Part shown: piece by piece, positions 32,363-53,667 of the stretch
Layout: each line of letters starts with the position of its first letter
Position numbering within the stretch: the first letter of the stretch is position 1
The notes under the pieces: model-generated
Seen by the model: the letters and a program-made list of their open reading frames with translations, nothing else
What the model was told of the DNA's origin: nothing
The model's database searches: none
Made by a program: the position numbers and the translations under genes
From: Alphaproteobacteria bacterium
Lineage (GTDB): Bacteria > Pseudomonadota > Alphaproteobacteria > MPNO01 > UBA830
Length of the DNA stretch: 64,000 bases
Reading direction: 5' to 3'
Assembly: GCA_965243135.1 (NCBI GenBank)
Contig: OZ251539.1
Location: 6,016,001 to 6,080,000 of the forward strand

Positions 32363-33796
32363 CTACTGCCCTGCGCCGCCCATCCGTTCGTCGAAGTTCG
32401 CCGGCTCGTCGTCGAGTCGTTTCTTGGCCTTCAGCACATCGATCCGCCGTTGGAGATCGGCGTACGGTTGACCGCCCGGGTCGAGCAGGTCGAGCAATGC
32501 GCTCCAGTGCCTGACCGCGGCTTGTTCGTCGCCCGTCGAGAGGGCGAGCGCGCCGGCCAGCCAGAGGCCGCGGCGATTTCGGGCGTCCAGGGCGAGAATT
32601 TTCTCGACCACGGGAGCGAGCTCGTCGCGACTCGGCGGTCTCGGCTCTGCTTCCGCGGCGATGCTGTCGGCCCACGCCATCAGCAGGCCGACGTCGTCCG
32701 GCCGCAAGGCCGACGCCTTGGCGTACGCCGCTTTCGCCTTTTTCCTTTCGGCCAATACGGCATAGGCGCGCGCCAGCCGTTCCCAGCCGGCCGCATCGTC
32801 GGGAGCGTCTTCGAGCCGGGCGGCGAGCCCGTCGACCATCGAGCGGATCATCGCCATGCGCTCTTCGGCGGAAAGTTGCCGGGCCGCTTCGATATCCTCC
32901 CGGGTCGGCCCCGGTCCGGCCTTCGACCGGCCTTTCATCCTTTCGAGCGCGTCGTCGCCGACGCCGGCCTCGGCCGCCAAGGCCGAGATTCGCGGGCGCA
33001 GGAACCCGAGCAGCGGAGAGTCGGGCGGCAAATCTGCTTCCAGCGCCAGCCAACGGTCCAACGCCTTTTTCAGGCGTCCGCCCTGCCGGTCCGCGACGCC
33101 GAGATAGTAACGGGCGCGAGGATCGCCGGCGTCGCGGCGCAGAGCTTCGTCGAAAGCGGAGGCGGCCTGCGGCGTCACCTGGCCGTCGGCTGCCCGGGTC
33201 AAGGCTTCGCCGCGGAGCGAGAAGAATTCGGCGCTGGACGGCGCGATTTTCGCGGCTTGCGCATAGGCGTCGGCGGCCTTCTCGTGGCGACCGAACTGCG
33301 TCAGGATCTCGCCCAGCGCCCGCCAGCGCGACAGATCGTAAGGGTTTTCGGCCAGTTCGGAGGCAAGCGCCGAGACCCGATCCTTCGACGGTCGGTTCGC
33401 TTCGGCGGCGACCGTCTCCGGCCCGGCAGGACGGGCCGGCAGGTCCGGATCGCCGTGAACCAGATAAACGGCGGCGGCGATCGCGGGCACGCCCACCGCC
33501 GCGGCGGCGGCCGCCAGCGGGGCCCTTCCGACTGGCCGGCGGTCGCCGGTTTCGGAGCGGTCGCCGTCGAGGGCGAGAATGCGGCGCCCGATTTCGGCCT
33601 TCGCCGCTTCGGCATGTTCCTGCGAGATCATCCCCGACTCGAGATCGCGATCGACTTCCCGCAGCCGGTCGCGATGAACCTCCAGTTCATGGCTCTCGCG
33701 GGACGGCGGCGCCCGGCCGCCGCGCAGCAAAGGCAGGGCCACCAGCGCGCCGGCGCCGGCGGCCATGAGCGTCAGGACGACCAGCAAGAGCGTCAT
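32363..33796 (-). CDS. ccmI: Cytochrome c biogenesis protein CcmI (CycH), TPR-containing
   Basis: N-terminal TM, HRDRLREVDRD..EIGRRIL, TPR repeats and MIRSMVDGLAARL; coupled to ccmH. Confidence 0.9.
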   Translation of the reverse strand: MTLLLVVLTLMAAGAGALVALPLLRGGRAPPSRESHELEVHRDRLREVDRDLESGMISQEHAEAAKAEIGRRILALDGDRSETGDRRPVGRAPLAAAAAAVGVPAIAAAVYLVHGDPDLPARPAGPETVAAEANRPSKDRVSALASELAENPYDLSRWRALGEILTQFGRHEKAADAYAQAAKIAPSSAEFFSLRGEALTRAADGQVTPQAASAFDEALRRDAGDPRARYYLGVADRQGGRLKKALDRWLALEADLPPDSPLLGFLRPRISALAAEAGVGDDALERMKGRSKAGPGPTREDIEAARQLSAEERMAMIRSMVDGLAARLEDAPDDAAGWERLARAYAVLAERKKAKAAYAKASALRPDDVGLLMAWADSIAAEAEPRPPSRDELAPVVEKILALDARNRRGLWLAGALALSTGDEQAAVRHWSALLDLLDPGGQPYADLQRRIDVLKAKKRLDDEPANFDERMGGAGQ

Positions 33797-34257
33797 TCCT
33801 TCGGCGTCGCGAGCATGGCCTCCAGCCGGCGTTTCTCCTGTTCCGAAAGCGGCTCCGCCTCCTCCCGGACGCGGCGGCACCGGATCGCGATCGCGGCGAC
33901 GCCGACGGCCAGCAGCGCCCATGGCCCGATCCACAACGCGAAGGTCGCCGGCTTGAACGGCGGTCGCAACAGCACGAACTCTCCGTAACGCGCGACGATG
34001 TAGTCGACGACCTGGTCGTCGCCGTCGCCCGCTTCGAGGCGATCGCGCACCAGCAGGCGCAGGTCGCGGGCGAGGGGCGCGTCGGAATCGTCGATCGACT
34101 GATTCTGGCACACCAGGCATCTCAGCGAACGACCGATTTCCCGCGCTCGGGCTTCCAGCGCAGGGTTCTGGAGGATTTCGTCCGGCTCCAGGGCAGGGAC
34201 GGGAAGCGCCGAAAAAAGGAAGGCGACCAGCGGCGCGAAGAAGAAGAACGCCCTCAT
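33793..34257 (-). CDS. ccmH: Cytochrome c biogenesis protein CcmH (CycL)
   Basis: LRCLVCQNQSIDDSDA and RYGEFVLLRPP. Confidence 0.95.
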   Translation of the reverse strand: MRAFFFFAPLVAFLFSALPVPALEPDEILQNPALEARAREIGRSLRCLVCQNQSIDDSDAPLARDLRLLVRDRLEAGDGDDQVVDYIVARYGEFVLLRPPFKPATFALWIGPWALLAVGVAAIAIRCRRVREEAEPLSEQEKRRLEAMLATPKE

Positions 34258-34802
34258 GGGTCGCCCGCCCTGGCGAGAGCCGGACGGATGATCCGGTCGA
34301 GCTCGCCGGGATTGATCGGTCCGACGTGCCGATGGCGAATGCGTCCTTCTGCGTCGACGACGAAAGTCTCGGGGTATCCGGAAACGCCCCAGTCGATGGC
34401 CGCGCGCCCGTTCGCATCGGCGCCGATCCGCGAATAAGGGTTTCCGAGCTCGTCGAGGAACGCCAGAGCGTCCGCCGGCTTGTCCTTCACGTTGACGCCC
34501 ATCACCGGCACGCCTTCTTCGGCGAGGGTCATCAGCACGGGGTGTTCGACGCGGCATGGCGGGCACCACGACGCCCAGAAATTCACCAGCGATACCCGGC
34601 CCATCAAATCCGCGGTCTCGAGGCCCTGCTCGCGACCGGCGATCGGCGGCAACGCCAGGGTCGGAGCCGGCTTTTCGATCATCGGCGACGGGATGCGGGA
34701 AATGTCCTTTCCGCCGGGACCGATCTGCCAGAGATAGGCACCGAAAACGGCCGCCAAAACCGCTAGAAGCAGAGCCGGAGCGATATGGACAGCGCGGATC
34801 AT
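34254..34802 (-). CDS. ccmG: Thiol:disulfide interchange protein CcmG/DsbE
   Basis: NFWASWCPPCRVEHP and GVSGYPETF. Confidence 0.95.
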   Translation of the reverse strand: MIRAVHIAPALLLAVLAAVFGAYLWQIGPGGKDISRIPSPMIEKPAPTLALPPIAGREQGLETADLMGRVSLVNFWASWCPPCRVEHPVLMTLAEEGVPVMGVNVKDKPADALAFLDELGNPYSRIGADANGRAAIDWGVSGYPETFVVDAEGRIRHRHVGPINPGELDRIIRPALARAGDP

Positions 34803-35229
34803 AGCCGAAGCGCAAGTCCGGAACGAACGGGAATTTCTTTCATGGCGGGCGCAAGTCCTGACCGGGCCGACGGGCTTTCGAAGATACGACGATTGGCCCG
34901 AGGGCGGAAGGTCGAACGCATTTCTTCCGCCACGTGCCGGTTCGCCAGCGCGCGCTCGGGCACTGGCGGCCCGTTCGGGTGTCCAGTGAGTCACGCTGGC
35001 CTCCGGCGTCGCCGGCAGGGGCCGTGTTCCAGCCTTGCAGGTTCTGGACATCCACGCGAACGCCGAGTGCATGGAATCTCCGGCGATGCGCATTCTTTTT
35101 CACCGGTATCCGGCCAGTTTGACGAACGAACAATTCCGCGAGGCGGCACAGAAATCCGGCTGACCGGCGATGAACGCCGACGCAATGAGCCTGACGGGAC
35201 CCGGCAGGACTCCGGTTCAACTGACCAAG

Positions 35230-37311
35230 CTATCGGTCCGTTCGCAGGTCATCGAGAAACTCGGAGGCTGGCTCCACGCCGGTGACCAGGAGACGGTCGC
35301 GCGCGCGCGTGCAAGCGACATAGAGAAGATGCCGCTCGGTCTCGTAGGTATCCTCAAGGTCGGCTTCGTCGGCGACGCTCTCGATTCTGGATTGCAGCGG
35401 CAGGATTTCGTCGTCGCACGCCGCGACCGCCACGGCGCGGAACTCTAACCCTTTGGCAAGATGCATGGCGCCGACCGCGACGCTGTCCACGGTCGCGACC
35501 GCGCGTTCGCCCAATTTTGCGAAGGACATTCCAGCAGATCGGACAGCTTCGACTGCGCGTTCCATTTCGGCCTCGGACCGGACGAAGACGCCGATCTCGT
35601 GCGGGGCGTACCCCTCTTGCCGCAGGGCGGAGAGCCACGCGGAGACGGCGGCGCGTTCCGTATCCGCCGATTCGTGGATCTCGACGGCCGGTTCCGGTCC
35701 GTTGAACGCCGAGACCGCGCCGCGCCGGCTCTCGGCAATGCCGTCCACATCGGAAATTTCGCCCGGCAGAAGTCGATCCGCCTGCTGCCGGATCTGGTGG
35801 GAAGTCCGGTAGTTGACGGTGAGCGTCAGAGACCGACCGCGCACGTCCACGCCAAGCGCGCGCCAAGAGAACGGCGTCTGGAAGATTCGTTGCCCGAGAT
35901 CGCCGGCGAAGAACAGGCAGTCAGGCCGGTTCTCGCCGAGGGCGGCGAAAAAGCGGAGCGCCGGCACGTCGATATCCTGCGCCTCGTCGATGACGCAAAA
36001 ATCGAACGGAGGACGACTCGCTTCCGCAAAATGCCGCTCAAGGCGGCGAAACAGTTCAGGCTCCGTCAGCCGTCCCCGTTCATCGAGCGTAGAGCGCACC
36101 CTGGAAAAGATGGACCAGAGGATGGCGCGTTGCGTCTCTGCCAGCCGCGTTTTTCGCCCCAACCGCGCAACGTCTCGATAAGCTTCCCAGCTCTCGATCT
36201 GCCACGCATCGATCACTTTGCTCCATTCCGTACGCAGGAAGCGTCGGCTGAACTTGCGTTCCCCGGCTTGGTCCGCCGCCCTGTCGATCAGTTCTCCGAT
36301 CTCTTCGTCGGAAGCGAAGACGGGCGTTCCGAAATTGGCCTCGTAAAGGCGATATCCGATGCCGCGCATCGAGTGAACTTCAAGGCGCTCGGCGATGCTC
36401 GGCTGGTTGTGGATCAGGCGTCGGAGCCTCGTGCGCAACGCGTTCGCGAGAGCGTCGGAGAATGTCGCGAGAAGGGTCCGTGCATCCGGGTGCGCGCGGG
36501 CGAGATGGACGGCGCGATGAAGCGCTACGACCGTCTTTCCCGTTCCGGCGGATCCCGATACGCGGACAGCGCCGCCGTAGTCGCGTTCGATGATCCGGCG
36601 CTGCGCCGGGTGGAGGAAGACGGTCCATTTCTCCCACGGGTATTCGAGCGCGCGCTTCAGCTCTTCCACGTTCGCCATAACGCGAAAGCGGCGCTGCGCG
36701 TCCGGATGTTCGAACGGGTCTTCGTCCGCGGCCGCCGGTGCCGGCCGATCGGGCGCGCCGCCGGTCGCGAGCTGCAACAACGCTTCTGCCGCCTCCGCCG
36801 GCAGGCGTTCGGCGAGATCGAGCAGGCTATCCTCGTCTGCGCGCCTCACTTCCTCCAGCCACTCGGCGGGAACGCCGTAGCCGAGCAGCTCGTCTTCGGG
36901 CGTGTCGGCGAAAAGCGCGGGCTTCGCCGAGGAGCCCGGCAGGTCTTCCGCGCCGTAGCTCGGTCTTACGGTTTCGCGCACGGTCTCGCGAATTTCGACG
37001 ATCTGTGCGGCGCCGGTTTTGGGGTGGCGACCGATTCGTCGTCGCTCGGCCCAGCGATAGGCATCGTCGTGATGGGCGACATAGGCGAGCAGCAGGCTCG
37101 AGGCGGTCTTGTGGACGATCAGGCGGATGTCGCGGCTTGACCGGACAGACCAGAAATTCTTGTCCTTCGCGCGGTCGAGCTTGTGAAGCGACAGTCCGGG
37201 CGACGAGAGATTCATCTGCAAGTCGAAGGCCGTCATCTTGGCGGCTTTCTGCTCCTCGCCGGTCAGCTTTGCAAGGCTGGCGGTGAACGTATCTGCGATT
37301 CGGAACAGCAC
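35230..37311 (-). CDS. UvrD-like SF1 helicase with N-terminal RelE/ParE-like domain
   Basis: GSAGTGKT, IDEAQD, GDLGQRIF, NYRT, HLAKGLEF and LYVACTRARD; N-terminus SPGLSLHKL..WSVR..DIRLIV..YVAHHDDAY. Confidence 0.88.
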   Translation of the reverse strand: MLFRIADTFTASLAKLTGEEQKAAKMTAFDLQMNLSSPGLSLHKLDRAKDKNFWSVRSSRDIRLIVHKTASSLLLAYVAHHDDAYRWAERRRIGRHPKTGAAQIVEIRETVRETVRPSYGAEDLPGSSAKPALFADTPEDELLGYGVPAEWLEEVRRADEDSLLDLAERLPAEAAEALLQLATGGAPDRPAPAAADEDPFEHPDAQRRFRVMANVEELKRALEYPWEKWTVFLHPAQRRIIERDYGGAVRVSGSAGTGKTVVALHRAVHLARAHPDARTLLATFSDALANALRTRLRRLIHNQPSIAERLEVHSMRGIGYRLYEANFGTPVFASDEEIGELIDRAADQAGERKFSRRFLRTEWSKVIDAWQIESWEAYRDVARLGRKTRLAETQRAILWSIFSRVRSTLDERGRLTEPELFRRLERHFAEASRPPFDFCVIDEAQDIDVPALRFFAALGENRPDCLFFAGDLGQRIFQTPFSWRALGVDVRGRSLTLTVNYRTSHQIRQQADRLLPGEISDVDGIAESRRGAVSAFNGPEPAVEIHESADTERAAVSAWLSALRQEGYAPHEIGVFVRSEAEMERAVEAVRSAGMSFAKLGERAVATVDSVAVGAMHLAKGLEFRAVAVAACDDEILPLQSRIESVADEADLEDTYETERHLLYVACTRARDRLLVTGVEPASEFLDDLRTDR

Positions 37312-37312
37312 T

Positions 37313-39808
37313 TCAGGCCTCCACCGCAACCGGGGCGCCGATCCGGTTCGCGACTTCGGCATATAGATCGACCTCGGTTTCCGGAGTTCGGATGCCGACG
37401 ACCAAGGCGTATCTCGCCGCTTGATCGTATCGTTCGAGCGCATGACGAGTTTTCCACCATCCCGGCGCAGGATAGACGGCGATGTGTCCGCGGCTCGCGA
37501 GATCGGCGGCGTTTCCCCGCCAAATATCTCCATGCAAAGATCCCCGGTGACGCCCTCGCGCTCCGATCAGCCACTCTGGATCTCCGTCGCCTGAGTCGGT
37601 TCCCGCCTCCTCGTTTCGCGCCGCTGCGTTGATCCGGCCGCGAAATGCGTCGATCTTCTCAAGGGGACGTTTGACGTCGAAGCGGAGGCCGTGAGATTCG
37701 TACCGGTAGCGCGACCGAACGCCCCGCTGCGACGGGTTGGGCTCGATGAAATAGGAGAGCGTCACTCGCATTTCTACCGGCATCTCTCCCAAGCCTTCCA
37801 GAACGTCGATTGGCCATGGAAGGCTGTGGAGGTGCATGTTTCTCGTGGTGGGCGTTTTGCCAGCCTCTCGCTTAAAGGGATGCAGGCTTTCCTGGACGAT
37901 CATGGTCAGGGAATTCGCGACGCTCCAGAGCGCCCGGTCGAGATCGGGACAACCGAACCCGCAGCGCCGCAACAGTTTTCCGTAATCTGCCTTCGACGGA
38001 TCGCCGGTTGCGGGCAAGTATGTTCGCTTCATGGCGTCGGTCCATTCCGCCGACTGCACGATGAGCGCCCGAATCGTTTCCGGCCAAAATTCGGGATAGG
38101 CCGCCATCACCTGCGCCGCCATGCGGGACGCAAGCGCCGTCGCGGCGCTGGTGGCGTTGGTTGTTGTGAAGAGCCGGTCGGCCGGTTGGTGGTTGGTCAT
38201 CAACAGGCTCAGGCTCGGCATCGGGACGGCGCTCAGCGAATCCTTCGCGGCGTTGCCGCCTTCGAGCACGACATCGGGTTTCAGCGGCCAGTGCGGCTGC
38301 CACGTCAAGGAGGTCGTGCTGAACGGGATCAGCCCGCCTGGCGGCGCGACGGGCGAATAGCCGTCCGCGTCCGGCTCGGTGATCCGTGCGAGGTCGGTGC
38401 AGGCGCCGGCGGTGAGCACGTTCCATGCCTGGGCCGGATCGTGCACCCCGTCTGTGTCGTTGCTGTCGGGATATTCGAAACATGCGTTCTGATCCTTGAT
38501 GTTTCCGGCGGAGACGACGATCAAGCGCGGAGTCTCGCCCTGTCCGTCGGCGTCCGCCGCGAGCGCATCCAGCGCCGCTGACCAAGCGGATGGACGGCCC
38601 CGATCTCGATTGTCTCGGGCCGTAACGGCCATGCTGAACACCCTTTGCCGAAGAGGGGCGGTGATCTCGGGTCGCGCAATGGCCTCCTTGGTCAAATATC
38701 CATGATGACGAGGATCGTTTCCCGTCGCTCCTTCCATTGGCAGCAGTTTCACCGATTCCAGACGGTGGTCGATTTCCAGGGGATCCCTGCCGGAAAGATG
38801 GTCCGTCAAGTTGCCCGCGAGGGCCAACCCCGCCATCTGCGTCCCGTGGCCTTCGTCGTCGTTGGTTCCCCAAGCGGGTTCGACGGTATGCAGGTCTTCG
38901 GCGGCGAGCGCGGAGGACAGAAATCTGTGGCCGCGATTGACGCCTGTATCGAGCAGGCAAACATGGGGTGCCTCGTCGTTGTCGGAGTACTGGATTCGGG
39001 CCAATAGATCGTCGAGCCATTCCCGTTGCTCGTCGCGGCGCATGGAATCGAAAAATTCCGCTGTCTCCTTCGCTCGCCGCAATTCGGCAATGCTGTTGAG
39101 CGTCACTATGGAACGCCGCATCTTTTCGGCCGACGCGCGAACCAGCAGTACGCTCCGCTCCGGAAAGAACAACTCTCCTTGGGCGATCTCTATTTCCTGC
39201 GCTTCGGCCCCTTGGCGAAATGCGGCGATTGCCGCTGTCCGATTTCGCCGAACGGGCAGCCACATTTCCCACCAGAACGACTCCGCGTCGTCGGTCGGGA
39301 AGGCTTCGGGATCGTCCGTCCAGAGCGCATGCAGACTTGCCATGCGGATCCTCTCGATGGCGTCGATCAGCCGCCGGTTGTCGCGAGGGCGCCCGGCTCC
39401 GTCCCGCTTCTCCGTCAAATAGTCGCGAATGAGGTTTTCGAAGTGATCGAGCTTTCCCTCGGGTACGAAAACGGTGGCGCTGGTGCGGCCGTCCTTTTGG
39501 CGGACATTGAGCAGCTCGATTCCCGAACGTTCCCTCGTCAGGCTTTCGAAGGCCATTTCAATGTCCGGAAAACTTTCGAACTCGACCCGAAGCCCCAGCC
39601 CCTCTTCGATCTCGACAACTTGTTGAGCGTTCCGATCGGCTTCCAACCGAAGAGCGTCGATTTGCCGTTGCAGGGATCTCCCGTGCCGGGCCCGGTCTCG
39701 AACCGGAACCGGAGGCCGTCCGCCGCGAACCGGCGAACGATACGCTTCGGTCTCCGTTACGTCTTCGAGGACGAAGTGCCGATGTCGCTCCTCCTTTCCG
39801 TTCGCCAT
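37313..39808 (-). CDS. S8 subtilisin-like serine protease (IetS-like)
   Basis: Catalytic triad CLLDTGV / GHGTQMAG / ATSAA; SAGN, KPDVV; no signal peptide; directly follows an AAA ATPase. Confidence 0.88.
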   Translation of the reverse strand: MANGKEERHRHFVLEDVTETEAYRSPVRGGRPPVPVRDRARHGRSLQRQIDALRLEADRNAQQVVEIEEGLGLRVEFESFPDIEMAFESLTRERSGIELLNVRQKDGRTSATVFVPEGKLDHFENLIRDYLTEKRDGAGRPRDNRRLIDAIERIRMASLHALWTDDPEAFPTDDAESFWWEMWLPVRRNRTAAIAAFRQGAEAQEIEIAQGELFFPERSVLLVRASAEKMRRSIVTLNSIAELRRAKETAEFFDSMRRDEQREWLDDLLARIQYSDNDEAPHVCLLDTGVNRGHRFLSSALAAEDLHTVEPAWGTNDDEGHGTQMAGLALAGNLTDHLSGRDPLEIDHRLESVKLLPMEGATGNDPRHHGYLTKEAIARPEITAPLRQRVFSMAVTARDNRDRGRPSAWSAALDALAADADGQGETPRLIVVSAGNIKDQNACFEYPDSNDTDGVHDPAQAWNVLTAGACTDLARITEPDADGYSPVAPPGGLIPFSTTSLTWQPHWPLKPDVVLEGGNAAKDSLSAVPMPSLSLLMTNHQPADRLFTTTNATSAATALASRMAAQVMAAYPEFWPETIRALIVQSAEWTDAMKRTYLPATGDPSKADYGKLLRRCGFGCPDLDRALWSVANSLTMIVQESLHPFKREAGKTPTTRNMHLHSLPWPIDVLEGLGEMPVEMRVTLSYFIEPNPSQRGVRSRYRYESHGLRFDVKRPLEKIDAFRGRINAAARNEEAGTDSGDGDPEWLIGARGRHRGSLHGDIWRGNAADLASRGHIAVYPAPGWWKTRHALERYDQAARYALVVGIRTPETEVDLYAEVANRIGAPVAVEA

Positions 39809-39828
39809 ATCGGGGAAAGAACTTTCGG

Positions 39829-40818
39829 TTATCCGTTTCTACTATGCAGCCGGTCGGCGATGACCTTGCGCTCCTCGATCATCGTCCGGATATCGGCTTG
39901 GCGGACCTTGGCGCGTTGTTGGATCAGCGCGTTCTTCAGCACTTCGTTCGCGGCGCGCGTGACCTCGGCGTAGTTCAATCCCTCGGCTGCCCTGGCGAGA
40001 ATCATCCACTGGACGGGGGTTACGGCGCTTCCGGCTAAGCGCGTCTCGAGCAGGGCCGCGATCTGCGGTTGGGTGGGCAGGTCGTAGTGCAGGACGTCGT
40101 CAAAACGGCGGAACAACGCCGAATCGAGGATCTCAGGGTGGTTGGTCGCCGCAACGATGAGGCTGTGCGACCGGTCGTGTTCGATCATTTGTAGAAAGCT
40201 GTTCAGCACGCGGCGAATCTCGCCGATGTCGTTGGCGATTCCGCGCTGAGAGCCGATAGCATCGAACTCATCGAAAAAATAGATCCCTCGGGTCCGGCTG
40301 GTGGCGTCGAACACCTGCCGAAGCTTGGCCGCCGTCTCTCCCATAAATTTCGTGATAAGGCCGTCCAGCCTGACCAAGAAAAGCGGAAGCCCGAGTTCGC
40401 CTGCGAGAACGGAGGCCGTCAGCGTCTTGCCCGTGCCCGGGGGGCCGACCAGCAGCAGCTTGCGCCGCGGCGAAAGGCCGTGATCCAAGATCTTTCCGGC
40501 ATGACGCTGTTCGCGGATGACGCGCTCGATCTGCTCGGAGAGAGGCTTGCCGAGGATCATCTCTTGCAGCCGGGTCTTCGGATAGGAAACCTCCAGAATG
40601 TTCGCCAGTTCGCCGCGCGGGCGGCTGATCGGCACGGGCGCTCCGGCTTCGCGTCGGCCCTTGGCGTCGTCGATCATGGCGCGGAGCTCTTCGGCGAGCT
40701 TGCCGTGGCCTCGCCGCGCTTCGTGGGCGGCGACCTGCATGGCGACCGAGAAGAAACGGTCGTCGTCGCCCTCCAGATGCGATTTCAGCAGCGCCTTGAG
40801 CTGATCTGCGCTAGCCAC
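39829..40818 (-). CDS. AAA+ ATPase (IetA-like)
   Basis: MASADQLKALL, GPPGTGKT, FFDEFDAIG and AATNHPEILDSALFRRFDD; GTG at 40818 fits the GGAGG spacing (alternative ATG at 40824). Confidence 0.9.
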   Translation of the reverse strand: MASADQLKALLKSHLEGDDDRFFSVAMQVAAHEARRGHGKLAEELRAMIDDAKGRREAGAPVPISRPRGELANILEVSYPKTRLQEMILGKPLSEQIERVIREQRHAGKILDHGLSPRRKLLLVGPPGTGKTLTASVLAGELGLPLFLVRLDGLITKFMGETAAKLRQVFDATSRTRGIYFFDEFDAIGSQRGIANDIGEIRRVLNSFLQMIEHDRSHSLIVAATNHPEILDSALFRRFDDVLHYDLPTQPQIAALLETRLAGSAVTPVQWMILARAAEGLNYAEVTRAANEVLKNALIQQRAKVRQADIRTMIEERKVIADRLHSRNG

Positions 40819-40848
40819 GGACATCCTCCCAATGACGCGACAGCCGAT

Positions 40849-43643
40849 TCATACCCGAAACACCTTCATTGCTTCGTCGCCCAGATGGTTGATGACCTTG
40901 ACGGCGATGCGGCCCGAGGCGGGGCGGCTGAAGGGGCGGGAAACGTCGCTGTGGAGCGTTGCCCAGGCATCCGGATCGATCTCGGCTTTGAGCGTGGTCT
41001 TGAGCGCTTTGTAGGGGTCGTCCGCTCCCAGAAAATAGGCATGGCGAACGAAGAAGCTTTCTTCGTTGTAGTTGGTGTCGACGAACCAGCAGGCGATGCC
41101 CTCGGGGCCGTCGCTTCGGATTTCGCCGGTATTGGGGTGAAACACGTCGACGCCGTTGATCCGTACCTGGATTTGGCTGTCCTCCAAGTCTTCGATTTCG
41201 ATGTCGGGTTCGCCGAAGACGACGAACAGGTTGCCCTTGCCCGTATTCTTGAGGTCGGTGGCCATGTGCAGATCGGCGTTGATCCGCGCCTTGAGAACGG
41301 GTACGCGGCCGAGCTTCTCGAACTCGGTGGCATGGGCCTCGTAGCTGAAAGCGCAGGAGATGAGCACGTCGAAGCCGGCGTCCGCCGCTTCGCGCGCCGC
41401 GGCGACAAGGTCGGGACGCTGCACGGTGCCGAATTCGGGTCCGATGAAGATGCCGGCGCTGCGCTCAACGCTTTCCCCCCCCCCCCCCCCCCCCCATCTT
41501 CGGCGTAACGGCCTTCGGCGCAGACGTGGTCGCCCGCCCGGGGGGCGAGGGAGGAGAACGCGATGCGATCCTCCCGATGCGCCTGCTGGACGCCCGCTGT
41601 CTTCAGGTTCTCCAGGATCATGGCGACGAAATCCGGTGTTTCGCCATAGCCGAGCCTGCCGTCGGCCAGGCTGCGGAACGCCTCGTCGTTTTCGTCCACC
41701 GCCAGCGTCTGATGCGGCGCGACGCTCTCGACGGTGAACGGTCCGGCGACGCGGACGCGAGTCCTGTCCTCGTAAGGTTTGTCGTAGAGATATTCGGTGT
41801 CGGCCTTCACGGCGATGGAGGCATCGATTTCCTTCTGGCGAGCGATGCGGGCCGCCCACCATTCGGCATGCGCCGCCTTCGCTTCGTCCGGCCAGCCGGC
41901 ACCGGCTTCGCGCGGGATTTGCCATTCCTCCCGTGCCTCGCCCAAGGCGGCATTGAGCGTCTCGCGCAGCGGCTCCAGCGTTTCCTGCCATGCTTCCCAA
42001 ATGGTGTCGATTTCCGCGTTGTTGGCGATGGACTTGAGGGTGACATGGGGGACGCGCTCGTAGACGAAGCCCTGGCGCACGTCGCCGCCGGTCGGAGTTT
42101 CGGCGGGCGCGCGGTTCGTGAGTTCGGCTTCCCTGCGTTGGCCTTCCGGGCTGTCGGCGAGCAGATACCACGGGTAGCGCGAGCCCATGATCCGCATGCG
42201 GGCAAGCGCTAAAGCGACACGGGAGGTGTCGATGGTAATCCAGCGCCGGCCCCACTGCTCGGCGACATAGGCGGCGGTACCGGAACCGCAGGTTGGGTCG
42301 AGAACGAGGTCGCCAGGGTCGGTGGTCATCAGGAGACAGCGTTCGATGACCTTGGGTCTTGTTTCCACCACATAAGTTTGATTGGTTGTAAAACCGCTTG
42401 TATCGGTCCATACGTCTCCAAAACTTCTCACCGGATAATCGTCGATATAAAGTCTGTATCTTAACTTGTTCCCCTGAATTGAAATACGACCAGATAGAGA
42501 AATTCGTTTCATGCCGTCAGGATAGCTGACTTGCCAATGTCGATTATTATTCGGGCGATAAATCCTTCCTTCAAACTTGAATGGTGTGTCGATATTCGCT
42601 TGACCCGAGCTCTCCAATGAGACATATCGAAAAATCCTGCCCTTTATTTTTGATGGAGACAATAGTTTCTCCTTATCATTTATCATCCGATATGAGAATG
42701 GTTCTATTTCAATGTTTTTATAGAAATTATCGTGCCATTTTTCTTCAAAAACAGGTCTGAATTTGCATTGTTCTATAATTTTTGCGTACCAGATTATTCT
42801 GTCTCCAGTTCGCCCAATAAAATTCGATTCAAGACTTCCCGTTTTCGTAAAAAAGATTTCCCTAACGAAATTCCCCTCGCCAAACACCTCGTCCATCACT
42901 ACCCGAACGCGATGCACGTTCTCGTCCCCGATCTGCACAAACACCGAGCCGCTCTCGGCCAACAGGTCCCGCGCCACCGTCAGCCGGTCGCGCAGATAGC
43001 TCAGATACGAATGAATGCCGTCCCGCCATGTGTCGCGGAATGCCTTCACCTGTTCTGGCTCCCGTGTGATGTGCGCCGCCTTCCCGTCCTTAACGTCGCG
43101 GCTGGTGGTGGACCATTGGAAGTTGGAGTTGAAGCGTATGCCGTAAGGCGGATCGACGTATATGCACTGCACCTTGCCGCGCAGCCCCTCGCGCTCGGCG
43201 AGGCTGCCCATGACTTGGAGCGCGTCTCCCAGGATCATGCGATTCGACCAGTTGGCCTCATGCCGATAGTATTCTGTCCGCTCCGCGCCTTCCGGCAGAC
43301 CGTTGAAATCGGCGAAGAGATCCGGCGCGTCCTCCGTTGCATCGTCGCGGCGGCGCTTCGCTTCGCGCAGCAGGTCATCGATCAGAGCCTTGGGGTGGAC
43401 CTTCTCCTGGATATAGAGGGGCGGAGCTTGGACGATCAGGTCGGCTTCGTCCTGCTCGTCCTTGCCGCGCCAGACTAACTGTGGATCGAGGTCGCGGTTG
43501 CGGCGCTCGTAGACGAGGCGGACCGGAGCCTTGTCCTCGTCCGCCATCAATGGCTGGCCCTCGGCCGACGGATTGTTGAGCCGAGTCGCCCCTTCGTGCG
43601 TCAGGGTTTCGACTTGCAGGGGGTTCTTCGGTTCTCGCGCCAT
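40849..43643 (-). CDS. mod: Type III RM DNA methyltransferase (Mod), frameshifted at a G21 tract as sequenced
   Basis: NRMILGD, YVDPPYG and DLVLDPTCGSGT in the frame ending at 40866; the conserved-looking C-terminus (AGIFIGPEFG..IAVKVINHLGDEAMKV) is in the frame ending at 40849; the switch falls at 41475-41495. Confidence 0.88.
41475..41495 (-). repeat. G21 homopolymer within mod (candidate phase-variation tract)
   Basis: 21 consecutive C on the + strand; no other long homopolymer was seen in the window. Confidence 0.85.
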
Positions 43644-44425
43644 CACGCCGCGACTCGCCGCAGGAGTTTGCGGTCGAGATCCCCACGCGACTCCAGAGAC
43701 GAAACCATGTCGCCGCCCACGTCCGACAACCTGGCGAGATCCGCCCTCGGGATCTCGGCCTGATTCTCGAAGACGAGGATCGACTCGAACGCAAGCTCGT
43801 GCCGATGGAAATGCGACAGCATGATCGTCGTCAACCGCGCTTTGTCGCGGTTGGGTACGCCGTAGAGGAACAGTGGAACGCCGTCCTTGCCTTCGATCCG
43901 GTAGTCGACGGGATAGGCGTTGGCGTTCGGCACGTCCGGTCGGTAGTCGGGTTGGAACTTGTCCCCGCCCACCAGATGAGAGAGGAGGTCGGCCAGATCG
44001 TCGTAGAAGGTGGAACCGACGTTGGAGCGTGAGAGTAGCGTCAAGTCGTAGATCCTGGTCAGCGCCTGTCCGAAACGGAAGATGGCTTCCGACAGCCGCT
44101 CGGGGGAGGCGTCAAGGCAGAATGCCCCGCCATCCCATTGCAATTCGCTCTCGGCCATGATGCGTTCGAGCAGCATCCCCCGTGCTCCTTCCAGGAACGA
44201 ATCGACATCATGCTCGTAGCTGATATGCATAAGGGTATGGCCGCGGTCTGACAGCCGGAAGCCGCCAGCCGACGCCTCGGCGAGATGGATCGGAAAACGG
44301 TCTCCGTCGGGGAACTGAAAGCGCGTCTGCAGCGTTAACGCACCATCCGGACGCCGTTCGATTCGTATATCCTCGCAGAGGCGTTCGCAAAGCAGTCTTT
44401 GAAGCGCATCGTGGTCGGCGATCAT
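43643..44425 (-). CDS. DUF1828-like hypothetical protein
   Basis: TRFQFPDGD..I.L....FRLSDRGHTLM N-terminus and YPVDYRI C-terminal part; overlaps both neighbours. Confidence 0.7.
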   Translation of the reverse strand: MIADHDALQRLLCERLCEDIRIERRPDGALTLQTRFQFPDGDRFPIHLAEASAGGFRLSDRGHTLMHISYEHDVDSFLEGARGMLLERIMAESELQWDGGAFCLDASPERLSEAIFRFGQALTRIYDLTLLSRSNVGSTFYDDLADLLSHLVGGDKFQPDYRPDVPNANAYPVDYRIEGKDGVPLFLYGVPNRDKARLTTIMLSHFHRHELAFESILVFENQAEIPRADLARLSDVGGDMVSSLESRGDLDRKLLRRVAA

Positions 44426-44892
44426 AACGGCAGTCCCAGCTGATCGTGTTCAGCGCCGATCCCGCTCAGATTGAAGTCGTCGATCAGACAGGCTAACGCA
44501 CCTTCGAGAGTTTCGTATCGATCGGTCTCCTCTGCCTCCCGCTCTGGCTTTCTTGCCGTCGCGATCGCTTTTTCGGTAACGCGGTGGATACGCGAACGCC
44601 AGACGATATCGTCGTGCGCATAACTCGGACCATTGTAGCGCGTCAGAGTGAGTGGCGGCCCGTCAGGTGGAAGATATGCGATACCGCAGGAGAAATCGTT
44701 CGCGTCTGTCAGATTCTGACGCACGTAGACCGAAAAATGAGCATCCTTGCCCCCCGCACCCTTGAAGCCGCGTTGGCGATGCGCAGGTCTTGTCTTAGGT
44801 TTGTCCGACCGGCTCGCGCCTGGGTTTGTCACCCGCTTCGGCATCGACCGGAGAGCGTCGATTTCTGCTTTCGTATAGGGCCGAATGTTCAT
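44422..44892 (-). CDS. Hypothetical protein, upstream partner of the DUF1828-like gene
   Basis: 156 aa with IDALRSMPKRV, YVRQN..DFSCG and LTRYNG..H..IH; ATGA-type coupling. Confidence 0.7.
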   Translation of the reverse strand: MNIRPYTKAEIDALRSMPKRVTNPGASRSDKPKTRPAHRQRGFKGAGGKDAHFSVYVRQNLTDANDFSCGIAYLPPDGPPLTLTRYNGPSYAHDDIVWRSRIHRVTEKAIATARKPEREAEETDRYETLEGALACLIDDFNLSGIGAEHDQLGLPL

Positions 44893-45218
44893 CGCCGAAC
44901 CCACTCTCCGCCGCACGAGACGAACCGCGGATCGTGGCAATCGCTGGCGAGGCGGGCGGACATCTTGCGTTCGTCAGCTTTCATGGCCCGGAATATGACC
45001 GTCGGACGGAATTTCGCTCCGAAAGCGGAAGCGCCCGCTTCCCGCGTCGCAGTTGAGCGGCGGTGAACCAGAAGTGTAGGTCTGAATCGAGACAACGACG
45101 CTTGCGTCGCGTCTGTCCGCCGAAAGATCAATCCGTCATCAAGGGTTTTACCGAAACGCTTTCGGATTATTCGGTCGCGCAGTTGTTCGACCCGCATCGA
45201 TGTATTTCCACAGATCAT
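44889..45218 (-). CDS. Small hypothetical ORF or gene remnant
   Basis: 109 aa; overlaps the res stop and the next start by 4 nt each; no recognisable motif. Confidence 0.35.
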   Translation of the reverse strand: MICGNTSMRVEQLRDRIIRKRFGKTLDDGLIFRRTDATQASLSRFRPTLLVHRRSTATREAGASAFGAKFRPTVIFRAMKADERKMSARLASDCHDPRFVSCGGEWVRR

Positions 45219-48200
45219 CCGGGCAGCGCGCTCTGTCGCTGAGAAATGTCTCCGATATCCGGTCGGCTTCCGCCAGATGTTTGGTGCGCGGCGGCGCGGG
45301 GGGCGGACAGGAACGGTTCGAGCATCTCTTCGAAGCGGATTTTAACCGATTCGCTGAGATCCTTCTCCATTTCGTAGGGGTCGCTGAACTCGGCGAAGGC
45401 CCAGTGACCGTACGTATCGAGCCGGTTCACGCCGGGGACCCAGCAGTTCTCCATCGTCATTTTTTTATCTTTCGCGTCTTCTCCACGGTAGCCCTTGATC
45501 TCGACGATCAGATGGAGGGGGTCGTCGATGCCGCGCCCGTCGTTCACCAGGAGGATGAAATCGGGAATGTAGGTCCGGGCTGCGGAACCTGATCGGTAGG
45601 GGACTTCCAGTCCCAGACCCTGATTCTTGACGTAGGCGCGAACCCGCGGATGCGCTTCGGCGATGCGGCAGAACTCGACCTCCCAGTCGCTGTCGCAGAT
45701 TGCCCAGTTGACGTGGCAGCGGGAGGGCTGGGTTTTCCAGCGGGTCTTCTTCGAGGTGGTGAAGCGGACATGAGACGTCGAGCCGGCTGGATTATAGGGG
45801 TCGAGAACGACAGTGATCGGTTTTTCACCCATATGGCGAGCGACGATTCCCAGCGTGATGCGTTCGCAAGCCATATCGGCGAGCTCCTGGTACGCAAGCT
45901 GCGCTGGCCAAGTGCCCCCCTTACAGACGAGGTGTCCGTCGAGCCATTGACGCGTAATCCGCTTGAGCTGGCCGAAGAGATGGAGTTTCGGATCCTCGCC
46001 CGGATCCCGCCACTTCGTCTCCAGCAGCCGCTTCGTCAGGTGGAACAACAAGGTCGAGCGGCGCATCTCCTTGAGATGCTCAAGGTTCAGGGTCACGCCT
46101 TCGCCGACGATGCCTTCGTTGCGGGTGATCGAAGGGCCGACGAGGTCGGGCGTGAGTACAAGGGTGGAGTCTTCGTTGAACTTGGCTTCAAGGCGTTCTT
46201 CCGGCAGTTCGACCCGGTACCCGGCGACTCGCGGGAACCGGATCTCGCAGGTGTCGCGATCCGGCGTGACGGCTCTGACCTGCACCACGTCGCGCGGCTT
46301 CGGCGGCGACGCGATCACCGGCACGGCCGTGAAGTCGAAAGGGATGCCGAGCACGTCGGCATATTCGGGGTCGAGCAGGTTCTTGTCGTTGAGATCGTAC
46401 GACTGTCGGCGAAGCGCCCGCCCGACCACCTGCTCGCACAGCAGCTGCGTACCGAAGGCGCGCACGCCGAGAACGTGAGTGACAGTGTTGGCGTCCCAGC
46501 CCTCCGTCAGCATGGAAACCGAAACGACGCAGCGGGTCTCGCCGCCAAGCCGTCCCGCTCTTCCGACGGTATTCACCGCCTCGCGGAGCAAGTCCTGATC
46601 GGAGAGGTCATCCGCCCGGCGGCGGTCGCCGGTGCGGGCGACGACCTCGCGGCGAAAGCGGTCTATTTCGTCGGCGGCAGCGGCGCGGAATTTGCTGTCC
46701 AAGGTCTCGCCGGATTCGAGCTGCCGGCTGTCAATGAGGAGAGTGCGCGGTCGGCCGAGCGAATTGCCGTGGTCGTCGAAATTGCGGAACAGCGGAAGGC
46801 GGCCGTTTTCGAGGGTCGTGGAGCCGTCGGCGTTTTCGCGGAGGAAGCCGGAAACGTAGTCGTAGACGAGCTTCGAGGTCGATACGTTGTTGCAGACCAC
46901 GATGAAGCACGGCGGAACCTCGATATCGGCCTCCCGCCATGCTTCGAACGTTTCCTTGTAGTGTCCATAGAGAGCTTCGAGCGCGGTCTGGAGTTCGACA
47001 GGAATGCTCAACGGATCGAGCGCGGAGGCATTTCCGCCCTTCTTTTTCGGCATTTTCTTGCCGATATGGTCCCAGAGATTGCGGAACTTGGGCATCTCGC
47101 TCCTGGAGATGACGTTATCGGCCACCGGCACGCGCGGCAGCTTTACGATTCCGCATTCGATCGCGTCCATCAGCGAGAAGTCGCTCGCTGTCCAGGGGAA
47201 AAGCGTACCTTCCGCATAGCCCGAGCCGCGCAGGAAGAACGGAGTTGCCGAGAGGTCGATCACGCGGGCGAGGCTCAGCTTCTGTCCGACCGCTTCCAGC
47301 CCCGAAACCCAGAGCCGGGCCGCTTCCCGATCCTTCTCCGCTTCCTTGCGGTCGTCGCCGGTGAGGGCGTTTTCCTCGCCGTCGTCCGGCTTCTCGCGAT
47401 AACAATGATGCGCTTCGTCGTTGAGCGCTATCACGCTTCTGAGCCCCAGGAGCTCGGGCATGACGCGCCGCAACATCTGCCCTTCGCTTTCGAGAGACTG
47501 GATTTCGCCGTTCCGGTCCACGCGACCCTGGAGAAGCGCGCGGCCGCCGTTGGAGACCGTCATTGTCTCGCGCAGCTTGAAAGCGTGGAAGTTGGTGACG
47601 ACGATCTTCGCCCGTTCCAGGTCGCGCAGCATGTCGGTGGGGACGAGTTCACGACTGCGGTAGTAGCTGTCCGGATCGTTGGGCAGCAGTACGCGAAGGC
47701 GGTCACGGATCGTTATGCCCGGCGTCGTCACCAGAAAGCCTCGGGTAAAGCGCCCGCTGTTCGGCCGGCGAACCGCGTTCACGGTTTGCCATGCGATCAA
47801 CATCGCCATGACCGCTGTCTTGCCGGCTCCCGTGGCGAGCTTCAACGCCAGTCTGGCAAGCCCCGGGTTCGCTTCCGCGTTTACCGTTTCGAGGTGATCG
47901 AGGAATCGCCGCCCGGCGTTGCCCAGCGCCGGCGCCACCTCGGTCAGCCAGATCACCGTTTCCACCGCCTCGACCTGGCAGAAGAAAGGACGAAAGCCAT
48001 CGGATCGACCGCGGCGCCAGTGCTTCAGCAGCCGGGCGGTTTCCGGCGTCACCCGCCACCGCGCTTCCGGCAACGCGCGCCATTGGTCGACGGCTCGGCG
48101 GAGGCTGTCGATGATCTCCGTCAGATCGTATTGCTGACCATTGGCGGCGAGCCGCTGCGCCTCTGCGTCGAAGACCATCTCATGTTGGTTTCCTTTGCGC

Positions 48201-48355
48201 TTCTTCGGCTTCGGGATCGGCGTAATGAACGAGAACCGCCGCCGCCGGTCGACAACGCGGTTTGTCGGTTGACCGGTTTCATCAAGTTCCCAGTGGCGAG
48301 AGGGATATTCGTAAGGCGAGTTGAGAACTGGACGTTCGAAGAAACGATCCGTCAT
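45215..48355 (-). CDS. res: Type III restriction endonuclease (Res)
   Basis: LATGAGKT, NDEAHH, SATP, MLTEGWD and QVVGRALRR helicase motifs; C-terminal nuclease YIPDF..VEIKG. Confidence 0.92.
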   Translation of the reverse strand: MTDRFFERPVLNSPYEYPSRHWELDETGQPTNRVVDRRRRFSFITPIPKPKKRKGNQHEMVFDAEAQRLAANGQQYDLTEIIDSLRRAVDQWRALPEARWRVTPETARLLKHWRRGRSDGFRPFFCQVEAVETVIWLTEVAPALGNAGRRFLDHLETVNAEANPGLARLALKLATGAGKTAVMAMLIAWQTVNAVRRPNSGRFTRGFLVTTPGITIRDRLRVLLPNDPDSYYRSRELVPTDMLRDLERAKIVVTNFHAFKLRETMTVSNGGRALLQGRVDRNGEIQSLESEGQMLRRVMPELLGLRSVIALNDEAHHCYREKPDDGEENALTGDDRKEAEKDREAARLWVSGLEAVGQKLSLARVIDLSATPFFLRGSGYAEGTLFPWTASDFSLMDAIECGIVKLPRVPVADNVISRSEMPKFRNLWDHIGKKMPKKKGGNASALDPLSIPVELQTALEALYGHYKETFEAWREADIEVPPCFIVVCNNVSTSKLVYDYVSGFLRENADGSTTLENGRLPLFRNFDDHGNSLGRPRTLLIDSRQLESGETLDSKFRAAAADEIDRFRREVVARTGDRRRADDLSDQDLLREAVNTVGRAGRLGGETRCVVSVSMLTEGWDANTVTHVLGVRAFGTQLLCEQVVGRALRRQSYDLNDKNLLDPEYADVLGIPFDFTAVPVIASPPKPRDVVQVRAVTPDRDTCEIRFPRVAGYRVELPEERLEAKFNEDSTLVLTPDLVGPSITRNEGIVGEGVTLNLEHLKEMRRSTLLFHLTKRLLETKWRDPGEDPKLHLFGQLKRITRQWLDGHLVCKGGTWPAQLAYQELADMACERITLGIVARHMGEKPITVVLDPYNPAGSTSHVRFTTSKKTRWKTQPSRCHVNWAICDSDWEVEFCRIAEAHPRVRAYVKNQGLGLEVPYRSGSAARTYIPDFILLVNDGRGIDDPLHLIVEIKGYRGEDAKDKKMTMENCWVPGVNRLDTYGHWAFAEFSDPYEMEKDLSESVKIRFEEMLEPFLSAPRAAAHQTSGGSRPDIGDISQRQSALPG

Positions 48356-48489
48356 TGTCGACGATCCCCGGGTCGAGTGTCCCAAGCTCCAGCCAGCGCC
48401 GCGCCCTCATGACGCAGACCTTCTCCTTGATGGCGCCGTCGGCCACGCGGCATCGACAGCTAACCCGAAATTGTACGTAACTCTGGGGT

Positions 48490-52366: not shown

Positions 52367-53032
52367 CTATTCGACCGACGCTTTCAGCGCCGCCGCGCAG
52401 GCCCACGGGCAGAGCGCGAGGCAGCCGAGCGACATGGCGCACAGCATCAGGAGCGGCGGAGCGACGGCGAAGCCGCCGATCGCCGCTTGCACGGCCGACG
52501 TTCCGAAGACGAGCACCGGGACGAGCAGCGGAAGCACCAGCAGAGACAGCAGAACGCCGCCGCGCCGCGCGCCGAGGACGAGGGCGGCGCCAAGCGCGCC
52601 GATCTGGCTTACGACGGCCGTCCCCGCGGCCATCGCGGCCGCCATCGCGCCCAGCCCGGCCGGCTCCAGGCGAAGCATGACTCCGATCGCCGGCGCCGCG
52701 ACCAGAAGGGGCAGGCCGGTCGTGAGCCAGTGCGCGCACACTTTGGCCAGGACCGACAACCACAGCGGAAAAGGCGCGAGGACGAGTTGGTCCAGAGTGC
52801 CGTCCTCGAAGTCGCTCTGAAACAGCCGGTCGAAGGACAGCATCGCCGCCAGCAGCGCGGCAACCCAGAGAATGCCGGGCGCAATTCGCGCGAGCAGGTT
52901 CGGTTCCGGGCCGACGCCGAACGGAAACAGGGCGGCGGCGATCGCGAAAAAGGCGATAACGAGCAGAGTATCGCTCGATTGACGCAGGGCCAGGCGAACG
53001 TCGCGTTCCGCGACGGCGTAAAACGCCCTCAC
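52367..53032 (-). CDS. ccmB: Heme exporter CcmB
   Basis: LFPFGVGPE, LF.SDFEDGTL and LLVLPLLVPVLVFG; GTG overlapping the ccmA stop. Confidence 0.95.
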   Translation of the reverse strand: MRAFYAVAERDVRLALRQSSDTLLVIAFFAIAAALFPFGVGPEPNLLARIAPGILWVAALLAAMLSFDRLFQSDFEDGTLDQLVLAPFPLWLSVLAKVCAHWLTTGLPLLVAAPAIGVMLRLEPAGLGAMAAAMAAGTAVVSQIGALGAALVLGARRGGVLLSLLVLPLLVPVLVFGTSAVQAAIGGFAVAPPLLMLCAMSLGCLALCPWACAAALKASVE

Positions 53033-53667
53033 TGCGGACCGCCCGGCGACGGAGCGTAATCGGAGACGTCGAGGCTCCGGCCGTCGATGTCGAGCGGGTC
53101 GTTGCTCGAAACGACCGCCATGCCGCCGTCGGCGCAGTGCCGGCCGATGGCCTTCGCGACGGTCGTCGCCGCCGCCGCATCGAGAGATGCCGTCGGCTCG
53201 TCCAGCAGCCAAAGCGGCGCGTCGGAGGCCAACGCGCGCGCCAGCGCCAGACGCCTGGTCTGTCCCGCGGACAGGAAACGCGCCGACAGGTCGGCCAGGG
53301 CGGCGATGTCCATGCGGCGCAGCGCGCCCGCCAGTTCTTCTTCGCGGACGGCGCTGCGCAGGCGGGCGTGAAACGCCAGATTCTCCATGACCGTCAGCGC
53401 CGGCTTCACGGCGTCGCGATGGCCGAGAAAATGGATCGCGCCGTTGAATTCCTCCCGGTCTTCGCGCGCCGGCCGGCCGTTCCAGCGGACTTCTCCGGCG
53501 GCGGGCCGGGCGAGTCCGGCCATCAGCCGCAGGAGGCTCGTCTTGCCGGCGCCGTTGGGTCCGCGCAGGACGAGCGCGCCGCCCGGCGCGAGCGAAAAAT
53601 CGAGGCCCTGAAACACGAGGCGCTCGCCCCGGATGCAGGCCAGGCCGTGTCCGGCGAAGCCCTTCAT
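53029..53667 (-). CDS. ccmA: Heme exporter ATP-binding protein CcmA
   Basis: GPNGAGKT, LSAGQ and WLLDEP. Confidence 0.95.
   Translation of the reverse strand: MKGFAGHGLACIRGERLVFQGLDFSLAPGGALVLRGPNGAGKTSLLRLMAGLARPAAGEVRWNGRPAREDREEFNGAIHFLGHRDAVKPALTVMENLAFHARLRSAVREEELAGALRRMDIAALADLSARFLSAGQTRRLALARALASDAPLWLLDEPTASLDAAAATTVAKAIGRHCADGGMAVVSSNDPLDIDGRSLDVSDYAPSPGGPQ

Follow-up and report, generated by a model that had tools for sequence, protein, structure and literature searches.

The mod gene and its poly-G tract

The window analysed here, 64,000 nt of an alphaproteobacterial genome (contig OZ251539.1 of assembly GCA_965243135.1, positions 6,016,001 to 6,080,000; positions below are those of the window unless called genomic), carries a type III-like restriction operon of the NF046055 family with the layout res-[cargo]-mod-[IetA-IetS cargo]-helicase, and our subject is a long homopolymer within its mod gene. 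Positions 41475–41495 consist, on the minus strand, of 21 uninterrupted G (C21 on the plus strand), preceded on the 5' side by GAT (Asp, codon 716) and followed on the 3' side by AAAGCGTTGAGC. Counted from the ATG at 43643–43641, which overlaps the stop codon of the upstream gene and coincides with the point where homologues begin, 716 of the 931 mod codons precede the tract (41496–43643, minus strand). As judged by Pfam, PADLOC and Foldseek, these codons encode an N-terminal region, a beta-class methyltransferase (MTase) core comprising DPPY, the target recognition domain (TRD) and DPTCGSG, a helical region, and the start of a C-terminal module. A first-pass annotation made from the letters alone had pointed out that mod changes frame at this run, after about 716 codons and downstream of both DPPY and DPTCGSG, and all of its numerical statements hold. 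Within the window, a pattern of ten G occurs only inside the G21 run, with 12 overlapping matches where 0.36 were expected, and none of 100 shuffles reached 12.

The product of mod depends on the length of the tract. With 21 G, as assembled (length class 3n), Asp is followed by seven Gly and a 202-aa tail from an alternative frame (40866–41474, minus strand), which contains no internal stop and terminates with TGA at 40868–40866, 17 nt ahead of the normal mod stop at 40851–40849. With 20 or 23 G (3n+2), the sequence behind the tract reads GGA AAG CGT TGA, the stop codon lying at 41465–41467 (minus strand). Only with 19 or 22 G (3n+1) is the frame at 40849–41472 (minus strand; 207 codons and a stop) joined, which encodes the C-terminus homologous to that of other Mods and completes a protein of 930 or 931 aa. 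These three classes, as first proposed from the sequence, agree with the PADLOC profile PDLC03632 (MTase_III, 983 positions): the part upstream of the tract matches profile positions 73–759 (E 1e-283) and the part in the other frame positions 762–983 (E 5e-104), and the break therefore lies exactly at G21, with no other segment of Mod missing. The immediate stop of the 3n+2 class was also considered as a designed feature, which we rejected because about 7 of 74 metagenome homologues have a stop in the corresponding frame at codon 0–1 at the same place.

Domain organization of Mod and position of the tract

The motif order DPPY, TRD, DPTCGSG (motif I) is that of the beta-class N6-adenine methyltransferases of type III systems. 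Mod matches Pfam N6_N4_Mtase (E 5e-27), and its best Foldseek matches among solved structures are the type III Mods 6k0w, 4zcf and 7dsu (for 4zcf E 3e-16, over the core), so the earlier naming of the gene as a type III mod is well founded if worded as type III-like. The TRD stands out in the composition profile as a low-GC stretch (42370–42870, minus strand; 36–40% GC against 62–66% in the flanks). Contigs from two sequencing runs (X7 and X8; all sample evidence used here consists of Logan contigs, not raw reads) join position 42341 to 42868 or to 42960, carrying other TRD alleles between the same conserved flanks, from which it follows that specificity cassettes are exchanged at this site. 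The homologues P0014, P0015 and P0021 likewise have unrelated sequence at the TRD.

The tract site was placed on an AlphaFold model of the in-frame homologue P0002, which is 82% identical to the first 724 residues of this Mod (51-sequence alignment; mean predicted local distance difference test score, pLDDT, 68; predicted template modelling score 0.52). Core and TRD are well predicted, residues 632–670 are disordered, and a C-terminal module spans residues ~672–925 with pLDDT 50–80; the tract site corresponds to a loop between the strands 709–715 (..CAEGRY) and 720–728 (RRAGVFIGPE). With moderate confidence, this modelled position is a loop inside the C-terminal module and not a clean inter-domain linker. 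The earlier view of a separate C-terminal domain behind the tract is thus correct in that the C-terminal part depends on tract length, but, on this model, not in where the module begins. In 159 homologues the loop is Gly/Glu-rich and varies in length by about 15 residues; none of them has a homopolymer there.

Modelled alone (pLDDT 72), the 207-residue part behind the tract is predicted to form a small alpha/beta part followed by an FN3/Ig-like sandwich (residues 83–207). A wide search with VIA-align gave a generic FN3/Ig-like match for the latter (best Z 9.6, root-mean-square deviation 2.5, 82 aligned residues, chain 2vtf_A), the first 82 residues being barely covered by this search. Foldseek returned no match of the C-part model in the PDB at E <= 0.001, and a sequence search of the full-length homologue against the PDB matched the MTase core only. 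PF18273, suggested by Protein Atlas as the identity of the module (score 0.75, otherwise unnamed clusters), was too weak and was not used. The part behind the tract is 78–89% identical to homologues from many phyla, and its ratio of nonsynonymous to synonymous substitutions (dN/dS) against the nearest relatives is 0.14–0.20, which together indicate that it is functionally constrained. Gene decay was rejected as the main explanation on the same dN/dS values and on the intact state of res, the mod core and the helicase gene.

A stop-free alternative frame behind the tract

The frame read with G21 uses codon positions 2, 3 and 1' of the true frame (shift+1), and behind the tract all 201 of its codons are free of stops, up to the one formed by a conserved Met-Lys near the C-terminus. 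This is uncommon for the genome: among 572 confident long open reading frames (ORFs), each examined from 209 codons before its stop, shift+1 stays open for at least 200 codons in 1.2% (median 26 codons), as against 73% for shift+2. It is also unlike the rest of the family, in which the internal shift+1 stops number 3–5 in six orthologues from related genomes, 2–12 in 74 metagenome homologues and 2–12 in 79 of 80 species representatives; six of 80 metagenome loci had been dropped because the anchor motif was missing or the C part fell outside 195–215 codons, and the four readable ones among these have 4–8 stops. Thus, all 159 homologues tallied have at least two internal stops in the frame in which this gene has none, and the idea of a three-state switch, raised in the first-pass annotation, gains support from this.

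The absence of stops can be traced to codon choice in the C part of mod. Leu codons standing before a codon that starts with A are CTC at 5 of 5 positions, whereas CTG or TTG is used at 5 of 8 other Leu codons, and both Val codons before an A-starting codon are GTC; the choice for Leu and Val thus differs between A-contexts and other contexts within the same 207 codons. Furthermore, the most universal shift+1 stop of the family is removed by a Met-to-Ile replacement before NADLH, a position occupied by Met in 159 of 162 sequences. With the context-specific codon usage of this genome, 5.3 shift+1 stops are expected and the probability of finding none is 1.5e-4; a within-gene synonymous shuffle gives 0.003, and drawing codons from the whole gene 0.002. 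The 716 codons upstream of the tract behave normally in this respect (27 shift+1 stops observed, 21.9 expected), and in 15 other tract-bearing genes of the genome the number of shift+1 stops is close to expectation.

The foremost alternative is an ordinary two-state switch, in which Mod cannot fold or act without the C-terminal module, both off lengths are null for methylation and, since Res needs Mod, for restriction, and the open 3n frame is a chance result of codon usage. We regard this as somewhat unlikely in view of the stop counts, the context-dependent Leu and Val codons, the Met-to-Ile replacement and the normal behaviour of the upstream part of mod and of the other tract genes. A number of observations nevertheless weigh against selection on the frame and agree with the two-state account. 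The tract site, lying between two strands within the module, is not a free linker, and the module is among the most conserved parts of Mod. Shift+1 stops are somewhat scarcer across the whole family than in its shuffles (mean z of -0.64 over 162 homologues), and the value of this Mod (z -2.83), although the second lowest, stands beside those of three tract-less homologues (-2.85, -2.73 and -2.70). When family-specific codon use is applied at the seven sites, the probability of no stop rises to about 0.02, and the Met-to-Ile replacement is also present in two other homologues. The other tract-bearing members of the family that were seen lack an open alternative frame, the one in congener G004 ending about 18 codons on, and the whole alternative tail was found in no other protein of a collection of 5.8 billion clusters. 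Weighing both sides, we lean towards the 3n frame having been kept open by selection.

The tail itself is basic and disordered-looking, with 42 Ser, 30 Ala, 30 Pro, 26 Thr and 23 Arg among its 202 residues. Two matches to it turned out to be short, locally frameshifted stretches in otherwise normal homologues. A literature search for off-frame stops combined with phase variation returned only general work on the "ambush hypothesis".

The tract in other samples and at other loci

Contigs from three runs end in or cross the presumed slippage tract. In run X7, a contig of 570 letters covers 41464–42035 (572 positions) with no other letters and two gaps and is consistent with G19, and a second contig ends after 19 C; in run X8, two flanking contigs end after 20. 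Run X1, which comes from a different study and is labelled sponge metagenome, contains a 555-letter contig, 97% identical, that starts with at least 15 G. The long G run thus exists in at least three samples from two studies and is not an invention of the assembly. Contigs breaking within the tract are what mixed lengths would give, but library slippage gives the same, so that length variation in vivo is what we infer from them and not what they demonstrate.

The tract is one member of a large set of the contingency-locus type and not an isolated oddity. In this genome of one contig (6.10 Mb, 65% GC), G/C runs fall to 3–9 instances at lengths of 8–9 nt and then show a second mode of 55 runs of 10–21 nt (31 C, 24 G), while A/T runs of at least 10 nt occur once. 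When 135 stop-to-stop ORFs within 400 nt of the other 54 tracts were scanned against Pfam, tracts were found inside four ORFs with Mrr_cat_2 and ResIII (Type ISP-like; one of them open for 1634 codons including Type_ISP_C), inside one Eco57I-type ORF, and at the 5' ends of an autotransporter and of a giant Calx-beta/He_PIG/LapA protein (adhesin). About eleven large ORFs with high GC at third codon positions and no Pfam matches also have a tract at their 5' end or close to it. A G12 run occurs at least once in 28 of 61 related genomes, several of which have dozens to hundreds of overlapping matches; G043, G059, G002 and G049 have hundreds, with runs up to ~33 nt. The remaining 33 have none, many of them being fragmented assemblies, which may hide runs. 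As a separate observation, three tracts (genomic positions 2208758, 3781408 and 5147512) are located within or next to ORFs that match NHase_alpha weakly (E ~1e-6), possibly nitrile-hydratase-like leader peptides of modified-peptide clusters.

Tracts also recur within the Mod family. A paralogous res-mod pair of the same genome (genomic positions 1264800–1270189, L045; 33% and 41% identical, res followed directly by mod) carries a C18 near codon 46 of its mod gene, mod2, which is out of frame as assembled. Four of 166 loci from other genomes (6 + 80 + 80) bear a tract: in two mod paralogues of congener G004 a tract (G12 in one, G11 in the other) separates ..ALG from WEEWEIPRE, with both genes out of frame, a Pseudomonadales metagenome-assembled genome (MAG; L186) has an in-frame G18 at the same site, and a Latescibacterota MAG (L181) has an out-of-frame G14 at a third site, just after the MTase core. 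Taken together with the N-terminal tract of mod2, these loci indicate that tracts arose at four or more sites of the Mod family. The homologue P0015, from another assembly and with a different TRD and a shorter run, reads ...AEDGGGGG and continues with the shift+2 translation of the same downstream DNA, and P0014 ends in ...EDGGGAGGNC; relatives that bear the tract in other frame states therefore exist. In a cluster look-up, P0014, P0015 and P0061 are singletons. Apart from these loci, an isolated relic at genomic positions 587359–587940 is 60% identical to the C-terminal part of Mod and has no mod core beside it.

Several points limit the case for length variation in living cells. The contigs cannot separate variation in vivo from slippage in library preparation or assembly, the two gaps of the X7 contig are not localised within the alignment, and the exact length of G21 could be a homopolymer miscall. 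The MutS and MutL genes are moreover present and without stops, so that the genome differs in mismatch repair from the classic poly-G organisms; the genome of Campylobacter jejuni is small, AT-rich and not known to encode mismatch repair. These points would fit a simple miscall, with the true tract being G22 or G19 in nearly all cells and the gene intact, encoding a poly-glycine loop and lacking a useful switching rate. No sequencing platform sizes homopolymers of ~20 nt easily, G19 fits one of the X7 contigs, and the family includes the in-frame G18 of L186. We nevertheless consider this explanation improbable: a G run of 19–22 nt is intrinsically unstable, the contig breaks, at 19 C in X7 and at 20 C in X8, are what a mixture of lengths should produce, and P0015, both paralogues of G004, L181 and mod2 are all out of frame in independent assemblies. 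A miscall would also leave the stop-free alternative frame unexplained.

A possible three-state switch

The evidence is best accommodated if G21 is a real, slippage-prone contingency tract that sits in a length-tolerant loop of the Mod of a type III-like restriction operon and gives three products, which we consider probable. Replication slippage would add or remove G, so that the tract length would vary in vivo and mod would move among these products. At 3n+1, the complete Mod would be made. At 3n, the 723-residue core would carry the 202-residue out-of-frame tail, giving a protein of 925 aa, and ribosomes would terminate 42 nt before the ATG of ietA. At 3n+2, Mod would be truncated three codons after the tract, leaving ~640 nt of untranslated message before ietA; this stretch is slightly C-rich (33% C, 28% G).

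By analogy with EcoP15I, a Mod without its C-terminal module would no longer be coupled to Res; restriction would then be off, and methylation might be kept or lost. According to Gupta et al. 2015 (PMC4490356, PDB 4ZCF), one EcoP15I Mod protomer contacts Res extensively through its C-terminal domain, and the Mod dimer, formed by the N-terminal and MTase domains, methylates alone. The module studied here may, on the same analogy, dock Res. The earlier proposal that the lost part is needed for assembly with Res thus has a precedent, but sequence and fold searches detected no relation between this module and the EcoP15I C-terminal domain. Since the tract site in the model lies inside the module, shortened Mods may also misfold and lose methylation as well.

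With mod placed between other genes of the operon, early termination could reduce the output of IetA, IetS and the helicase. If the 3n frame is open, ribosomes would reach the end of mod and these three would escape polarity, and this is our preferred reason for selection on the frame; a stable Res-free form of the methylase would be a second. As a counterpoint, a scan of the operon for promoters and terminators yielded no excess of sites over shuffled sequence, and co-transcription of mod with ietA is therefore argued from the 25 nt that separate the mod stop from the ietA ATG. The most far-reaching form of this proposal is an evolved switch with three positions, namely a full restriction-modification (RM) system, a Res-uncoupled methylase with a selected translatable tail, and a truncation with polar loss of the downstream genes, which would set restriction and IetAS at once. 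In this complete form we regard it as unlikely.

A rheostat based on slippage of RNA polymerase, in which mixed mRNAs yield all three proteins at every DNA length and the open frame limits the cost of the commonest wrong product, appears very improbable, since slippage is best documented for A/T runs and the immediate shift+2 stop would still give a truncated protein, although 21 nt is far beyond the RNA-DNA hybrid of ~8–9 bp and the tracts of this genome (mode 12–21 nt) are longer than typical contingency tracts. The available text of two studies, which documents transcriptional slippage at homopolymers (PMC5009743, PMC6260861), also counts in its favour.

Comparison with known systems

As in the phasevarions of ModA, ModH and ModM, a repeat within the mod ORF sets the reading frame, here through the length of G21 and with all three frames verified. 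According to the available text of a survey of type III mod genes (PMC5909438, Atack et al. 2018), G[n] tracts are known among them, several phasevarions per genome are possible, and 662 of 3805 genes carry repeats, environmental species included, so that the first-pass statement that such genes occur mainly in four genera is too narrow. The same text notes that repeat-bearing genes had been reported as generally confined to small-genome pathogens. The present case differs in that the tract follows codon 716 of 931, so that the off lengths still encode the whole MTase core, and in that one off frame is stop-free to the end of the gene. The gene order res-mod-helicase with embedded defence cargo, and the host with its 6.1-Mb genome of 65% GC and intact mutS and mutL, are further differences.

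The late position of the tract, with 716 of 931 codons ahead of it, also makes it a case of C-terminal phase variation as described for Helicobacter canadensis, where late homopolymers alter the C-terminus without stopping synthesis (Snyder et al. 2010, PMC2823697). Most of the changes in the available text of that study concern a few residues, whereas here a conserved module of 207 residues would be swapped for an unrelated tail of 202 residues or removed. With the EcoP15I Mod2Res1 complex, this system shares a beta-class Mod composed of N-terminal, MTase, TRD and C-terminal parts. It differs in that the C-terminal region is ~440 residues longer, in that res lies upstream, and in that a third, UvrD-like gene belongs to the operon. 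The phase-variable Cj0031-type Type IIG enzyme of Campylobacter jejuni is reported to have a poly-G in a large RM gene, the slipping of which changes methylation, and is similar in this (PMC4889913). That enzyme is a single polypeptide. The remaining point of comparison is NF046055, the "BPTD_3080 family" of NCBIfam and PADLOC, whose members combine res, a long methyltransferase and a helicase with cargo slots; this copy stands apart by its tract and the stop-free alternative frame. Searches of a literature library returned no experimental work on the BPTD_3080 family and nothing on phase variation of restriction in sponge symbionts.

Type III mod genes that vary in phase and C-terminal phase variation are both already established. 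What the present case adds is a tract located behind all of the catalytic core, in a gene that stands second of three in an operon carrying embedded defence genes, and an alternative frame without stops downstream of that tract. It also adds a tract repertoire of this extent in a large, GC-rich and mismatch-repair-proficient genome, and tracts that have arisen repeatedly, at several sites, within a single Mod family in different phyla. Repeat-driven methylase switching is known mainly from small-genome pathogens, whereas this genome is of 6.1 Mb and GC-rich, with near-identical DNA in a run labelled as sponge metagenome. If the open frame is indeed under selection, a contingency tract shapes the coding sequence downstream of it, and the locus would offer a concrete, testable example in which one switch sets restriction apart from modification and from the expression of neighbouring defence genes. 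If the open frame arose by chance, this is just another phase-variable mod gene of the ordinary sort.

Organization of the operon and its surroundings

The first gene of the operon, res (45215–48385, minus strand), encodes a superfamily 2 helicase with a C-terminal endonuclease-like region. Its ORF comprises 1056 codons, and the gene as called (P0272, 987 aa) begins at a later start. Res matches the NCBIfam model NF046055, "BPTD_3080 family restriction endonuclease", from end to end (1290 bits, cut-off 800) and Pfam ResIII above the cut-off (27.7 bits); Helicase_C is weak, and RE_endonuc (PF19778) reaches 16.2 bits, below its cut-off of 23.4, while the homologue P0301 scores 26.7. A sequence search of Res against the PDB gave no match. 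The Res relatives P0273 and P0274 are 92–94% identical. With Res above the family cut-off, a Mod of the long PDLC03632 type and a UvrD-like helicase encoded downstream, the locus has the components of an NF046055-family operon. The order of genes is not the mod-then-res order of type III systems, and res is not downstream of mod: it lies upstream here and in the paralogous pair, and in at least 21 metagenome loci a res homologue ends immediately before mod.

Between res and mod (43643–45218, minus strand) lie three small ORFs of 109, 172 and 260 aa, identified as embedded cargo from Pfam, PADLOC and their junctions. They are joined by ATGA/TGATG stop-start overlaps, which couple them translationally to res and mod too, and the 260-aa ORF matches Pfam DUF1828 (E 1e-14) and PADLOC PDC-M24B (E 2e-10). 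The three-ORF set is absent from all 86 related loci tested.

Downstream of mod, the first-pass annotation had listed an ATPase/protease and a helicase among the genes that polarity might affect. These genes are present, but the first two constitute an IetA-IetS defence pair embedded between mod and the helicase gene, as recognised by PADLOC: ietA (39829–40824, minus strand; IetA, E 1.5e-74) encodes an ATPase and ietS (37313–39808, minus strand; IetS, E 1.5e-31) an S8 protease. The pairing of mod with a following ietA recurs in congener G004 and in 12 of 160 related loci. The UvrD-like helicase (35230–37311, minus strand; Pfam UvrD-helicase and UvrD_C), whose true start is probably just after the ietS stop, is the usual third gene of this operon family. 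Homologues of it, 58–65% identical, come immediately after mod and on its strand in 79 of 160 related loci. With a res homologue before mod in the metagenome loci above and the helicase behind it in these, the usual unit is res-mod-helicase.

The operon and its cargo form a 13-kb defence island (35230–48385) between ccmB and ccmG/ccmH-like genes (flanks at 32363–35093 and 52367–53683), which may be an insertion into a cytochrome c maturation cluster. Support is lacking for the ccmGHI genes, which had also been named as possible targets of polarity, ccmG/H lying beyond the island. Elsewhere in the window, positions 20191–20266 match the Rfam tmRNA model over 76 nt of its 374 positions, with 47.6 bits against a gathering threshold of 47.

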